From Candidatus Uhrbacteria bacterium (GTDB taxonomy: Bacteria; Patescibacteriota; Patescibacteriia; UBA9934; GWF2-40-263): a stretch of DNA of 64,000 nucleotides. The DNA lies in the NCBI GenBank assembly GCA_026395055.1, contig JAPLZK010000004.1, positions 18,805 through 82,804 on the forward strand. Reading direction: 5' to 3'. Positions 31 through 30,220 of this stretch are shown here, in pieces. Each line of letters opens with the position of its first letter. The first letter of the stretch is position 1. Both the position numbers and the translations under genes were made by a program. Under the pieces are notes generated by a model that saw nothing but the letters and a program-made list of their open reading frames with translations, did not search any database and was not told where the DNA came from.

Positions 31-54
31 CCCCCTCCTTAATGAAGGAGGGGG
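31..54. repeat. Palindromic element B, copy 1 (CCCCCTCCTT-aatg-AAGGAGGGGG), intergenic
   Basis: 10-bp perfect inverted arms with a 4-nt loop. The same motif recurs at 19652-19674 and 29627-29649. Confidence 0.8.
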
Positions 55-84
55 CAGGGGGTGGTCATGAGCGAAGCGAATCCA

Positions 85-113
85 TTGACAAAATCGCTAT
101 TTCATGATATTTT
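85..113 (+). promoter_or_regulatory. Sigma70-like promoter (TTGACA-N17-TATTTT) upstream of ORF 173
   Basis: TTGACA at 85-90, 17-nt spacer, TATTTT at 108-113. It shares the TTGACAAAATCGC core with the promoter at 1759. Confidence 0.4.
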
Positions 114-26398: not shown

Positions 26399-29121
26399 AA
26401 GGATGGTTCAAACAAAGCGCTGAGAAAGGCATCTTCTGAATTAGGGAACTCTGCGTGTGAAAGATCCTGAGAGCTCCAAACAGTTTTCATCGAATTTGGC
26501 GTGTGAACATGAACGGTTGTGGAACGATTGTTTGCTCCGGATTGCTTTTGTAAGAGAATGGAATAATTTTCTGTTGGGGAAAGACCCAACCAGGATTTAA
26601 TCTCTTCCGTTGTTTTGTTTTTGGCAACGAGCGTGTTGAGAGTGAAGGGGAGCGTGTAGGTAAATGTTGTCACTGTTTCTGTTCCTGGTTTTGTTTGTGT
26701 CCAGTTTCCAAAAACTGTTTTTCCATTTTCTTCATACATTTGCGTGCCACTGTCTTTGTCGATGGTGAAACTTGCATCTGCAAATTGGAGATCCGGGTCT
26801 ACAATCCACGTTGGATCTGGTGTTTCAAACAGGCTGCCTCGTGGAATCGTGAATCCTTCCGCATGTGTAAGGACACTTCCCTTGGGAACGTAGAGTCTTT
26901 GGTAATTGACGTTGTGCGCTCCGGTGAACGGATCAAGCGGATCACCATGATGTTTGCGTGTAATGGTAACGGTGTTTGTGATCTCACCGTTTGAGGCGAC
27001 ATCAACGTTTACATCCACATGTTCGTCTATGACCGCATCCGTTTTTCCTCCACCTAAGTTTGTGTTCACGATCATCAAGTAATCTTTGTCTGTTTGCTTG
27101 AGATCTCCACCCCAACCACGTCCGAGAACCGTTTTTTCGACCGTTTCGTCTGTGAAGTAGAGTTGAATGTCTTTGTCTGCGAGCCCTTTGTTTAATTGAC
27201 CTGCAAGCGTAAGGAATGTGTCTGGAGATTCATGGAGCGCTTTTTCAATGAGCTTTGGAGCGAGCGCGCCAATAAAGGCTTTGGGTTTGTTTTCTGTTTT
27301 GTCGTATTCGTTTTCAACAATTTTCTGTGTTTCGGAAATAAAGTTTTGTTGATTGATCGTTCGATCAAACTCTGGCATTTCAACAGGACCAAGAAGACCG
27401 ATGAGGTCTTGAACGTAATTTGCGTTCACAGCAATCACACCATCTACATCGGATCCTCGTGAATTTTTATAGAACGAAATGATATGTCGCGCACTTGTGC
27501 GAAAATCGGGAAACCAGTTTGCGTCTTGGAACTCCCATTTGGCAGAAAGAAGTTGCAGTGGCCATGGGGCAACAAAGGATTGTTTTTGTTGTCCTTGAAG
27601 ATCGTATGTTCCCCCACCTGGGATATCGAGCTGTTCCATGACGCCGTTATGAACCGTCATCTCGGCAAAGCTTCCCATGAATCCTCCGGTTGGACGAAGT
27701 TCTGTGTTGTTTTGGAAAATGAGCAAGTAATGTTTTGTTTCGTTCGCGCCGAGGATGGTCGAGAGCGCATCGGACAATGAGAGAAAATCTTTTGTGGATG
27801 ATACAAGTGCGGGAAGCGTTGTTGTAAGTTGTGTGTACGTTTCTTTGTGATCGTCATTGATGGCAGTCAGGTCAACGTCTTTCATGGCGTCTTCCGCGGC
27901 AACCAAATGGGGAAGGGCGGAGCTGAGATATAAGTGAAGAATTTCAAGACGAGAGGATGGTGTTGGATTGACTTCTTGTTGCATGGCAGAGAATCCGTCT
28001 GTGATGCGAGAACCGGCAATGGAAAGTTCAGATCCAATTTTGAGAAGAGCGGTATTTGTTTTGACGGATTTTTGTGTTGGTGCAAGTGCAGCAAGGAGAA
28101 GGGAAACTCCGGATCCAAGGGAATCAATGTTTTCTTTTGCTTTTCCGAATTCCACACTCGCTGCGGCAAAATGCGCACCCGCTTCTGTTGGATTGGAAAC
28201 CAAGTTTGCTCCCGCAGCATCTTTCAAACTTTGTAAGGCTTGTGCGCCGTTTGCTTGTGCGTCTGTTTTTGCATCTCGCAAACGGTTCAGAACTTGCATG
28301 GCGTGGAGCGGAAGAACAAAGACGAACGAGAGAAGAACAAACACTCCAATGGTTTGTTGCCATCCGGAAGGCAGGATCAAAAAGTCGAAGGATGGGATCC
28401 AAGAGCGTTTTGGTTTTTCTTCCGGCTCGTCGCTTGTGAGATCTGGAACGTCTTCAACATCAAACAGTGATTCCAAATCTACATACTCGACTTCTTGACC
28501 ACTCGACTCCTCGACTACTTCTTCTTCCGGTAAATCGAAATACGATAAAATATTTTCTGGGAGCATTTTTGGTTCAAAGGAATCGATGGAAACGGATTCT
28601 TGTTTTTGAATACGCAGCGGCATGAGTTCTGGATTCATGCGTGTACGAAACATTATACGCGGATGAAACAACATTCCTTCGAATGTGGTTTTTGGTGCGG
28701 GGGTGTGTGCACTCATTTGGCCCTGAAGATCCGCGAGAGATAACTCGAGATCGTGCGTGGTGTCTGTGAGCGGTTCTTCGTCACGTTCCATTTCTGCTAA
28801 TGCATCTGCAAGGAAATTCAAGTGAATATCCATGTTTGGTTCGTCACGCAAAAGAGATTCTGGTGAGGGAACATGCGGACGAAGTTCTAAGATGAATGGA
28901 GAGAGTGTGGAGGATTCTTGTAGTTGAACGGATGGATTTTCTGCAGAGATGGTTGAGGATGTACGGAAATTTTCTGGGATTGCTTCATCAAAACGTAAGC
29001 CGTCATCAAGCAATGATTGGCGACGCACGGCATTTCTGAGTGCACGCTCAAAAGACACGCGAGAAAGATTTTTTCGCGGTTCTGGTTGTTTTTGGAATTG
29101 GTTAAGAACTTTTTTTGCCAC
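26395..29121 (-). CDS. Very large (908 aa) single-pass membrane protein with extracellular domain (possibly DUF4012-like)
   Basis: TM helix at about residue 250; conserved-looking block FQNNTELRPTGGFMGSFAE. Confidence 0.35.
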   Translation of the reverse strand: MAKKVLNQFQKQPEPRKNLSRVSFERALRNAVRRQSLLDDGLRFDEAIPENFRTSSTISAENPSVQLQESSTLSPFILELRPHVPSPESLLRDEPNMDIHLNFLADALAEMERDEEPLTDTTHDLELSLADLQGQMSAHTPAPKTTFEGMLFHPRIMFRTRMNPELMPLRIQKQESVSIDSFEPKMLPENILSYFDLPEEEVVEESSGQEVEYVDLESLFDVEDVPDLTSDEPEEKPKRSWIPSFDFLILPSGWQQTIGVFVLLSFVFVLPLHAMQVLNRLRDAKTDAQANGAQALQSLKDAAGANLVSNPTEAGAHFAAASVEFGKAKENIDSLGSGVSLLLAALAPTQKSVKTNTALLKIGSELSIAGSRITDGFSAMQQEVNPTPSSRLEILHLYLSSALPHLVAAEDAMKDVDLTAINDDHKETYTQLTTTLPALVSSTKDFLSLSDALSTILGANETKHYLLIFQNNTELRPTGGFMGSFAEMTVHNGVMEQLDIPGGGTYDLQGQQKQSFVAPWPLQLLSAKWEFQDANWFPDFRTSARHIISFYKNSRGSDVDGVIAVNANYVQDLIGLLGPVEMPEFDRTINQQNFISETQKIVENEYDKTENKPKAFIGALAPKLIEKALHESPDTFLTLAGQLNKGLADKDIQLYFTDETVEKTVLGRGWGGDLKQTDKDYLMIVNTNLGGGKTDAVIDEHVDVNVDVASNGEITNTVTITRKHHGDPLDPFTGAHNVNYQRLYVPKGSVLTHAEGFTIPRGSLFETPDPTWIVDPDLQFADASFTIDKDSGTQMYEENGKTVFGNWTQTKPGTETVTTFTYTLPFTLNTLVAKNKTTEEIKSWLGLSPTENYSILLQKQSGANNRSTTVHVHTPNSMKTVWSSQDLSHAEFPNSEDAFLSALFEPSL

Positions 29122-30220
29122 ACGTTTCGTAAATGGTTTGAATCGCTTGTGCCATCTTTTTCCATGAGTAGCGTTTTATTTGTTGGGTTCCTTTTTCAAT
29201 CAGGTTCGCGCGTTTTTGGGAAGAATCAACAAGTGTTGATAAAACGGTCGCCATGTTCTGTGAATCGTTTGGGTTGAAAAATGCGGCGGCGTCCCCAAGG
29301 ATTTCTTTGAGAGATGGAATGTCTGATGCCGCGACCGGAACTCCGACAGACATGGCTTCTAATGGCGGAAGTCCAAAACCTTCAACGCGTGATGGATACA
29401 CATACAGCAAGGCGTTTTGGTAAAGCTCTGCAAGGTGTTTATCTGTTGGGTGGTTGATGAATTCAACGTTTGTTGTTTTGTGTTCAAGAATGCGCTTATA
29501 AAAAACATTTTCTTTTCCTGCCAAAATCAGCGTGAGATCTGGATGTGTTTGTCGAAGAATTGTGAATGCCTCAAGGAGTCTCTCGAGATTCTTATGAGGA
29601 AACGCATTTCCAACGTAGAGCAAATATGGTCTCGAGCCCCCCTCCTTTACAAGGAGGGGTTGGGGGTGGTCGAGCGCAGTCACACCCTCATACACCACTT
29701 CAATCTTTTTTGGGTCAACACCTTCAATATGATGAAGAATGGAATTTGCGGTTGCGTGAGAGACACTGATAACTTTTTTTGCGGCGGTGATGGCGTGAGA
29801 AAGAACAAGTTTGTATCCCCAGTATTTTAGCGTAAAAATCGTTTGATGTCTTGTGGAAATCTTTGAGGAAAATGGTTCGTCGAGCAAAATTAGATCATGG
29901 ATGGTGACGACAAATGGTGTTCGAAGAAAAAGCGGAACGTTGAAGTGAGGGAAGTGGACGAGGTCGAGATGCTCGCGATCAACGATTCCTCCCATTTTCA
30001 GTTGTTCTTCGAGGCCGTACCAGTGAACATCTGCAAGTCGTTTCTCGAAGTTTGGATTCGTAATGACACACGTATCAAAATTCTCTTTTTTTAAAAACAA
30101 AACATAACGGTTCTTGGTGTCGACCATCTGGAGTTCATTCACCAGCTGTTCAACATATCTCCCAAGACCGCCCCCACCCACCATCGGGCCATACATACGT
30201 GCATCGATGCCGATATTCAT
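29102..30220 (-). CDS. Glycosyltransferase family 4 (GT-B) with in-frame palindrome B insertion
   Basis: EGFGLPPLEAMSVGVPV motif; start MNIGIDARMYG. The palindrome translates as PLLVKEGG within the linker before the LYVGNAFPHKN block. Confidence 0.7.
   Translation of the reverse strand: MNIGIDARMYGPMVGGGGLGRYVEQLVNELQMVDTKNRYVLFLKKENFDTCVITNPNFEKRLADVHWYGLEEQLKMGGIVDREHLDLVHFPHFNVPLFLRTPFVVTIHDLILLDEPFSSKISTRHQTIFTLKYWGYKLVLSHAITAAKKVISVSHATANSILHHIEGVDPKKIEVVYEGVTALDHPQPLLVKEGGSRPYLLYVGNAFPHKNLERLLEAFTILRQTHPDLTLILAGKENVFYKRILEHKTTNVEFINHPTDKHLAELYQNALLYVYPSRVEGFGLPPLEAMSVGVPVAASDIPSLKEILGDAAAFFNPNDSQNMATVLSTLVDSSQKRANLIEKGTQQIKRYSWKKMAQAIQTIYETCGKKSS
29627..29649. repeat. Palindromic element B, copy 3 (inside the GT4 CDS, in frame)
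   Basis: CCCCCCTCCTT-tac-AAGGAGGGG. Confidence 0.85.

Follow-up and report, generated by a model that had tools for sequence, protein, structure and literature searches.

The stretch of DNA analysed here, a window of 64,000 nt on contig JAPLZK010000004.1 of a Candidatus Uhrbacteria bacterium, raises the question of why one palindrome, CCCCTCCTT-N3/4-AAGGAGGGG, should occur there three times and twice in frame inside protein genes. A sequence-only reading of the window had suggested a small mobile hairpin that lands in genes in frame, or a hairpin that sequesters Shine-Dalgarno (SD) sequences or pauses ribosomes. Based on our analysis, the three palindromes are probably the hairpin cores of solo repeats with the triplex-type design of the Escherichia coli BoxC elements, repeats that have the gene of a DUF559 endonuclease as their partner and ride in protein genes as passengers. 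Both host proteins, a FemAB-family transferase and a GT4 glycosyltransferase, have homologs under the names Candidatus Uhrbacteria or Patescibacteria, which places the window in a bacterium of the Candidate Phyla Radiation (CPR).

An exact search places the palindrome at 32-53, 19652-19672 and 29639-29659, where none is expected by chance, as 100 dinucleotide-preserving shuffles contained no match. The looser pattern CCTCCTT-N2-8-AAGGAGG returns the identical three sites and none extra, and nhmmer with the family profile added no intact copy to them. The loops (AATG, GTG and TAC, the last being GTA on the coding strand) and the hosts, a FemAB-family gene and a GT4 gene on the opposite strand, both with Pfam matches, are as the sequence-only reading gave them; its coordinates hold for the first two copies, whereas the third had been put at 29627-29649, about 10-12 nt too low. 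The repeat is also longer than the palindrome and asymmetric: GACCAC(C/T)CCC and a further 2-3 nt are found to one side of it in each of the three. Copies 2 and 3 are identical at 33 of 35 nt, have the same orientation relative to their host genes and share the sense-frame peptide DH(S/P)QPLLVKEGG; translation bears out that both read PLLVKEGG with the loop encoding Val. The copies and their hosts are as follows.

Copy 1, 31..66, plus strand: probably intergenic, at the window edge, with no long open reading frame (ORF) across it; pyrimidine arm 31-40 (CCCCCTCCTT), loop 41-44 (AATG), purine arm 45-54 (AAGGAGGGGG), spacer 55-56 (CA), G/T tail 57-65 (GGGGGTGGT) and C66.
Copy 2, 19640..19674, minus strand (the G-rich strand): in the FemAB-family gene, encoding D138-G149 (DHSQPLLVKEGG); on the plus (sense) strand, head GACCACTCC 19640-19648, spacer CAA 19649-19651, pyrimidine arm 19652-19660, loop GTG 19661-19663, purine arm 19664-19672, then GG.
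Copy 3, 29637..29671, plus strand: in the GT4 gene, itself on the minus strand, with peptide DHPQPLLVKEGG; on the plus strand, CC, pyrimidine arm 29639-29647, loop TAC 29648-29650, purine arm 29651-29659, spacer TTG 29660-29662, G/T tail GGGGTGGTC 29663-29671.
Host gene 1, 19229..20293, plus strand: FemAB-family peptidoglycan bridge-formation transferase (Pfam PF02388, E=1.8e-37), 354 aa.
Host gene 2, 29102..30313, minus strand: GT4 glycosyltransferase (PF00534, E=1e-34), likely start ATG at about 30220.

What kind of unit contains the palindrome? It is oriented and about 36 nt long (36-mer form CCCCTCCTTTACAAGGAGGGGTTGGGGGTGGTC), and consists of a pyrimidine arm, a loop, a purine arm, a 3-nt spacer and, in mirror image of the purine arm, a G/T tail, GGGGTGGT. 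The block lengths are 10/AATG/10/CA/9-10 in copy 1, 9/TAC/9/TTG/9 in copy 3 and, on the minus strand, 9/CAC/9/TTG/9 in copy 2. These are the three blocks of a class II purine-type intrastrand triplex motif, the third being antiparallel to the purine stem, so that G faces G and either T or A faces A; the motif allows at most about one mismatch in this third block, loops of 3-6 nt and a second loop of about 3 nt (1-6). The triplex rule holds at 9/10 positions between tail and purine arm in copy 1 (nhmmer E=4e-7), at 8/9 in copy 3 (E=1e-9), where the sole mismatch is terminal, and at 7/9 in copy 2 (E=4e-8), which has one C-to-T change in its head and is slightly decayed. With folding computed for Watson-Crick pairing, the DNA hairpin of copy 1 has -11.9 kcal/mol (z=-4.25).

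The tail, or head on the C-rich strand, changes with the stem. In a set of 421 unique hairpins whose 5' arm is homopyrimidine, head and stem covary as mirror images, the share of each stem type having the matching head being:

Stem CCCCTCC, head CCWCCCC: 83%.
Stem CCTCCCC, head CCCCWCC: 89%.
Stem CCCTCTC, head CWCWCCC: 91%.
Stem CTCCTCC, head CCWCCWC: 75%.
Stem CCTTCCC, head CCCWWCC: 52%.

The diagonal of the matrix of stem type by head type holds 0.50-0.91 and most off-diagonal cells at most 0.06, the exceptions being three cells between closely related stem types (0.20-0.77). At a spacer of 3 nt, the triplex rule is followed at 8/8 positions in 116 sides, and at other offsets almost never. 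Compliance among the minority stems is 85, compared with a mean of 31 (maximum 43) when partners are shuffled, and the ninth position, which was not used for selection, keeps the rule in 151/170. Pairing within the stem is likewise maintained: the variable second inner stem pair is Watson-Crick in 83/94 (T-A 50, C-G 23, A-T 5, G-C 5), and compensatory change preserves it in the GT4 ortholog L206. An asymmetry between G-T and A-C mismatches, considered as a sign of RNA structure, was set aside, as mismatches were too few and showed no bias. Judging from these comparisons, arm and tail covary as a purine-motif intramolecular triplex would require, and such triplexes are DNA-only (PMC4666352).

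The purine arm also contains a perfect AAGGAGG, which the hairpin pairs with an anti-SD-like sequence. Under the SD explanation, the hairpin would sequester ribosome-binding sites (RBS) or pause ribosomes within ORFs. Internal SD-like sequences have been proposed to pause ribosomes, and the hairpins are stable; this role is nevertheless very unlikely. An ORF of at least 80 aa starts 4-12 nt after GGAGG at just 17/302 palindrome sides, mostly from GTG or TTG within the tail or as an ORF reading through, with a single ATG start, which is not the pattern of an RBS hairpin. Moreover, variants without GGAGG (GGGAAGG, GGGGAGAGGG) keep the layout, copies occur in both orientations relative to genes, and sequestering would account for neither the mirror tail that covaries with the purine arm nor the link to DUF559 described below. 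The SD and anti-SD resemblance is a by-product of arms that are homopurine and homopyrimidine. The copies do not resemble intrinsic terminators either, as no terminator-like T-run or site was found at copy 1 and copies 2 and 3 lie in mid-ORF; in other genomes the hairpin of some copies is followed by AGCTTTTT. The related PIT/TMECO elements have no promoter or terminator activity (PMC4666352).

Is the repeat a known one? No Rfam family matched the window repeats or 18 element-rich loci at the gathering threshold, and literature searches with the raw repeat strings returned only unrelated primers. Its closest likeness is to BoxC of E. coli, rediscovered as PIT elements and equivalent to TMECO (Bachellier et al., 1990s; Hoyne et al., 2000; Holder et al., 2015, PMC4666352). 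TMECO reads 5'-CCCTCNCCC-N3-6-GGGNGAGGG-N3-GGGNGAGGG and forms a stable class II purine-motif triplex in vitro (PMC4666352). Both repeats have the class II purine-motif design, are multi-copy and dispersed, and often form inverted doublets. However, the three blocks are CCCTCNCCC, GGGNGAGGG and GGGNGAGGG in BoxC/PIT/TMECO and CCCCTCCTT, AAGGAGGGG and GGGGTGGTT in the window variant. The window copies themselves, reading CCCCTCCTT, AAGGAGGGG and GGGGTGGTC, depart from the strict TMECO pattern, and sequence of the TMECO type was found instead beside E. coli ycjD and in locus L058. TMECO is described as "always intergenic", as reported only in Proteobacteria, as tied to local genomic instability at deletion-prone loci and as linked neither to mobile elements nor to what the flanking genes do (PMC4666352). 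In contrast, the window variant occurs in more than 20 phyla among the matches listed in a palindrome scan of one genome per species (at least 120 loci), and in frame inside genes, two of the three window copies and a split copy lying within Pfam-supported ORFs. By its sequence design, the window family is of the BoxC/PIT kind of predicted intrastrand triplex, a new and widespread sequence variant rather than TMECO in the strict sense.

The phyla include many CPR groups, Acidobacteriota, Nitrospirota, Proteobacteria and Chlamydiota, and cultured bacteria are represented by Pontibacter, Hymenobacter, Rufibacter and Robertkochia. Among these listed matches, a head ACC[AT]CC[CG] lies within 45 nt of 122/148 palindromes, on one side only in 113. 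The spacer between palindrome and head is mostly 3-6 nt, and a second class has a small extra hairpin in it. Inverted doublets with complementary loops are found in L005, L065, L092 and L119. The triplex-motif kind is far more widespread than reported, dispersed across sites and genomes and reaching into the CPR and some viral contigs.

In a Thiomargarita metagenome-assembled genome (MAG) the whole unit is repeated in tandem, head to tail and without spacers, at a period of 41 nt (L092, 7128-7292). A Portnoybacteria MAG has six or more copies of a related variant (AATCTCCCCTAACCCCTCCTAAAGGAGGGGAAT among others) within 8 kb (L050, 706-7803), a density much above that of the window. The full three-block unit is also present on 24 stretches of IMG/VR putative viral contigs (L208-L231), with 3-4 copies on several contigs; no DUF559 gene was found on these 24 stretches. 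Such contigs may be a vehicle for spread, or misclassified host DNA.

Does any gene accompany the repeat? When the ORFs of the at least 120 element loci were clustered all-against-all, the only recurrent element-adjacent gene was one for a protein of about 120 aa that matches Pfam DUF559 (PF04480, E down to 5e-34). This protein has a Vsr-like PD-(D/E)XK fold and is closest to PDB 3hrl and NCBIfam PRK09767/YcjD. No recurrent transposase or RAYT appeared in the same clustering. Reciprocally, 80 metagenome loci were picked solely by similarity to the DUF559 protein, and 60 of them have a CCCTCC-N3-12-GGAGGG hairpin within 260 nt, 32 on both sides, while the head is present in 67. Most DUF559 loci without the strict motif have variant polypyrimidine hairpins with matching heads. 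Around the DUF559 gene, hairpins number 4.0/kb up to 150 nt away, 1.3/kb between 150 and 300 nt and at most 0.19/kb beyond 300 nt, a local enrichment of about 40-fold.

The canonical, inverted layout is a hairpin, an optional small hairpin, GGGGTGGT, 20-60 nt, the DUF559 ORF, ACCACCCC, an optional small hairpin and a hairpin. The head often provides the last codons and the stop of the DUF559 ORF (..DHP-TAA, TGA-CCACCCC). The ninth stem pair was considered as a specificity determinant and rejected, as it is not consistently matched between the two copies flanking one DUF559 gene. The hits from PADLOC were weak and at the level of domains only, giving no defence-system assignment. A Nitrospirales MAG has three tandem DUF559 gene fragments about 275 nt apart (L056, 5250-5909), a few kb from an intact repeat-flanked DUF559 gene.

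The same arrangement is found in E. coli. There ycjD ends in, and is then followed by, a BoxC-type unit, CCCCTCACCC-TAA-CCCTCTCCCC-AGA-GGGGCGAGGGG, which has a median of 18 occurrences per genome; its size and copy number match the published figures for BoxC (PMC2267715, PMC5172473). A BoxC-type unit likewise stands at the end of a DUF559 gene on a CPR (Andersenbacteria) contig. The gene ycjD is present in only 3378/5426 complete E. coli genomes. Copy number with and without it, in 60 genomes spaced evenly down the ranking, is:

ycjD present, 37 genomes: median 19 BoxC-like places, range 11-28.
ycjD absent, 23 genomes: median 3 BoxC-like places, range 1-14.

Genomes with ycjD have more BoxC-like places (Mann-Whitney p=2e-10, a statistic without phylogenetic correction). 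In E. coli K-12 (L207, 5330-5470) the last ~25 nt of ycjD (GGAGACGGTGCTGGAGAATATTC..) are duplicated about 100 nt downstream, directly before the BoxC-type unit; this looks like a remnant of a second gene end. Neither the link between DUF559 and the repeat nor the relation of ycjD to copy number is reported in the searchable DUF559 and ycjD literature or in the TMECO paper (PMC4666352), and the association appears to be new.

It might be argued that the DUF559 genes are there incidentally, the repeats being repetitive extragenic palindromes (REP/REPIN) moved by RAYT, an HUH Y1 enzyme, or miniature transposable elements with inverted repeats (MITEs) of ordinary insertion sequences (IS). The layout is REP-like indeed: short palindromes with a conserved flanking head, many copies, singlets together with inverted doublets that have complementary loops, one small nuclease gene between inverted copies, and a copy number that collapses in lineages without the gene. 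The differences, however, make this explanation improbable. The flanked gene is an HUH Y1 transposase in the REP system and a Vsr-fold PD-(D/E)XK DUF559 gene here. REP heads do not mirror stems and REPs are species-specific, whereas here the head mirrors the stem, giving triplex potential, and the sequence crosses phyla. The absence of a recurrent transposase from the at least 120 element loci, with DUF559 as the only recurrent neighbour, also speaks against it, and the reciprocal test and the local enrichment speak against an incidental association. RAYT genes (PF01797) flanked by inverted copies were not seen in the element loci, whole genomes not having been scanned for RAYTs.

MITEs such as Correia/NEMIS, RUP and ERIC are likewise small, non-autonomous, dispersed and foldable, and are occasionally co-transcribed or translated, but here the unit is only about 36 nt and no IS-derived terminal inverted repeats, target-site duplications or cognate DDE transposase were found. 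None of the three insertion sites compared (FemAB, GT4 and L123) has a convincing target-site duplication, and their surroundings showed no IS. The GT4 site does have CTCGA repeats, which were considered as such a duplication; a palindromic CTCGAG and conserved codons explain them. Rickettsia palindromic elements, like the present repeat, are palindromic, lie in frame within protein genes and are translated in tolerant regions; they differ in being 100-150 bp long and restricted to Rickettsia, with no triplex-type mirror block and no known partner nuclease.

How did copies come to lie inside genes? The FemAB gene holds copy 2 and a further, split copy, both in variable, low-confidence regions: the AlphaFold 2 predicted local distance difference test score is below 50 over residues 86-115 (split copy and nested insert) and 65-76 over residues 131-150, which include copy 2. 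The split copy, a decayed variant with tail GGGGAGGT, is divided by a nested insertion:

Fourth copy, left part, 19486..19501, plus strand: CACCCCTCCTGCCAAG, pyrimidine arm and loop.
Nested insertion, 19502..19567, plus strand: 66 nt, about FemAB residues 92-113, holding one palindrome of a second family (CTTGCCTGCCGGCAGGCAGG) as well as another hairpin (TCGAGGCTCTGAGG..CCTCAGGCTCTCGA).
Fourth copy, right part, 19568..19579, plus strand: AGAGGGGAGGTT, a remnant of purine arm or spacer with the G-rich tail GGGGAGGTT.

By codon alignment, ortholog L121 has the uninterrupted form of this fourth copy, ACCCCTCCTGCAAAGGAAAGGTTGGGGGAGGTT (peptide FTPPAKERLGEVS), and orthologs L122 and L123 have a clean gap in its place, a presence/absence difference of 39-42 nt. 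Copy 2 is common to L122 (68% identity) at the same position and absent from L121, which has other sequence there, and from L123. L123 (P0013) carries the unit at another, third site as an insertion of about 54 nt, and its 3' flank, GGATTGCG, is the same as that of window copy 2. Other short G/P/E/R-rich insertions occur in the FemAB alignment at columns ~83-93, 125-170, 305-325 and 398-408 (for example GEGQAPP, LPAGRQGEGGG, GGKEGRREEEGGKETR and LPPCQGGMKGGR); they resemble translated G/C-rich hairpin repeats, and repeat-derived insertions seem common in Uhrbacteria proteins.

Copy 3 lies in the hypervariable linker between the two Rossmann domains of the GT4 protein. Of three GT4 orthologs at 77-80% identity, L204 (80%) keeps the unit with TTC as its loop and an additional base, and translates it in another frame as DHPPTPSFSRRG; in L206 the copy is decayed and its stem shows a compensatory double change, and L205 has no copy. 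Distant GT4 orthologs are without the element. The sequence-only reading had expected ortholog alignments to reveal PLLVKEGG as an insertion. Presence and absence in FemAB orthologs and the occurrence at other sites agree with a dispersed repeat that enters genes and support the mobile in-frame hairpin in part, whereas at the two window sites the net length gain is little or none (none in GT4), because both sites are hypervariable linkers.

Outside the window, intragenic copies occur in Pfam-verified genes of other bacteria for MgsA, Lgt, a beta-CASP RNase, TsaE (two copies), GT2, an Orn/DAP decarboxylase and a PQQ-repeat protein. These coding copies use all three frames and both orientations, and the proposed rule that insertions keep the PLLVKEGG frame accordingly fails, as it does in the GT4 ortholog L204. 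A GTR loop closes the second sense frame with TGA or TAA, and a TAA or TAG spacer, common in the family, would close the first; the window coding copies have CAA.

Could the peptide be the conserved object and the DNA palindrome secondary? Its occurrence in two cell-envelope enzymes, with Val from the loop in both, might suggest a functional motif, an explanation that the ortholog alignments refute and that we find scarcely tenable. Most FemAB and GT4 orthologs are without PLLVKEGG, as they would not be if the peptide were ancestral; close orthologs read the unit in another frame as DHPPTPSFSRRG; non-coding DNA and unrelated genes across phyla contain the same nucleotides; and the segment sits in low-confidence linkers. 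PLLVKEGG is not an ancestral motif, nor does it reflect a frame rule across the family, and the coding copies are tolerated passengers in linkers.

The window has other features of note. The second palindrome family, CCTGCCTGCCGGCAGGCAGG, has five copies where none is expected:

10394-10413, 19503-19522, 42006-42025, 48496-48515 and 50706-50725: CCTGCCTGCCGGCAGGCAGG palindromes.

They lie mostly just 3' of genes or RNA genes, one 9 nt past an ORF ending at 10385, one downstream of the RNase P RNA and one between an ORF end and tRNA-Leu, with one nested in the FemAB gene. The core TGCCGGCA fits YGCCGGCR, tied in a 2025-26 Caulobacter paper to a solitary methyltransferase and a Vsr-like protein. 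The class A RNase P RNA match (42048-42602, minus strand) is 555 nt on a model of 367 positions, so large insertions must be present in it. A tRNA-Ile with anticodon TAT (UAU), uncommon in bacteria, is found at 60104-60180 (minus strand). G+C content is 0.52-0.57 at 8000-12000 and 30000-38000, compared with 0.41-0.46 in most of the remaining window.

How might these observations fit together? The repeat would be a unit of about 36-40 nt in three blocks (homopyrimidine arm, 3-4-nt loop, homopurine arm, spacer of about 3 nt, mirror G/T tail) whose G-rich strand may fold so that the tail covers the purine arm of the hairpin through reverse-Hoogsteen G.G-C and T(A).A-T triples. The small DUF559 (YcjD-like, Vsr-fold) gene, typically between two inverted copies, would be the family's partner. 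By analogy with REP and RAYT, we infer that the DUF559 nuclease may recognise the folded or duplex unit, and that repeats are multiplied, kept intact or both as a result. In a gene-dense Uhrbacteria-like (CPR) genome, copies would persist where they are harmless, as in the hypervariable FemAB and GT4 linkers, and be translated there as passengers in the frame that the GTR loop and CAA spacer leave open.

Solo copies could also be scars, 3'-end or terminator modules, of a mobile DUF559 cassette, or DUF559 could merely stabilise triplex-prone repeats that host recombination or replication slippage spreads. We regard this as unlikely, though some observations point to it. The head often supplies the last codons and stop of DUF559, L015 and L085 have degenerate remnants of DUF559 between copies, loci of TMECO are prone to deletion (PMC4666352), and the E. 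coli data fit repeats "lost without YcjD" as well as repeats "made by YcjD". On the other hand, solo copies far outnumber DUF559 genes, one locus (L092) has the unit in a tandem 41-nt array, and in-frame insertions of 39-54 nt in conserved, probably essential genes (FemAB, MgsA, TsaE, Lgt) are hard to obtain through a cassette intermediate of about 500 nt.

The partnership of DUF559 and the repeat, which we favour, has points against it too. The E. coli correlation of ycjD and BoxC ignores phylogeny and may reflect only a few loss events. Neither the window nor about 110 kb of related CPR loci yielded a DUF559 gene. At the sites compared, neither a target-site duplication nor a clean boundary of insertion could be made out, and the net length change at the two window sites is small. 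The orientation of flanking copies is not uniform, the heads pointing outward in L008 and inward at most loci. We know of no nuclease activity or DNA specificity for any DUF559 protein. The same G-tract pattern could also support a G-quadruplex, and the TMECO triplex was not detected in vivo (PMC4666352).

At slightly less than an even chance, the idea may extend further: DUF559/YcjD endonucleases would be the missing partners of BoxC/PIT triplex repeats, in a pan-bacterial REP-RAYT-like system whose repeats colonise genes in frame. If so, bacteria from E. coli to the CPR would have an analogue of REP-RAYT built on a different nuclease fold and a DNA triplex or hairpin substrate. Copies can ride in frame inside conserved enzymes, and annotators should be aware that G/P/L/K/E-rich insertions in CPR proteins can be repeat-derived. 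BoxC/PIT/TMECO has been known in E. coli since the 1990s without an assigned function, origin or enzyme. DUF559/YcjD would be a concrete candidate partner, testable in E. coli, that joins an orphan repeat to an orphan protein family.

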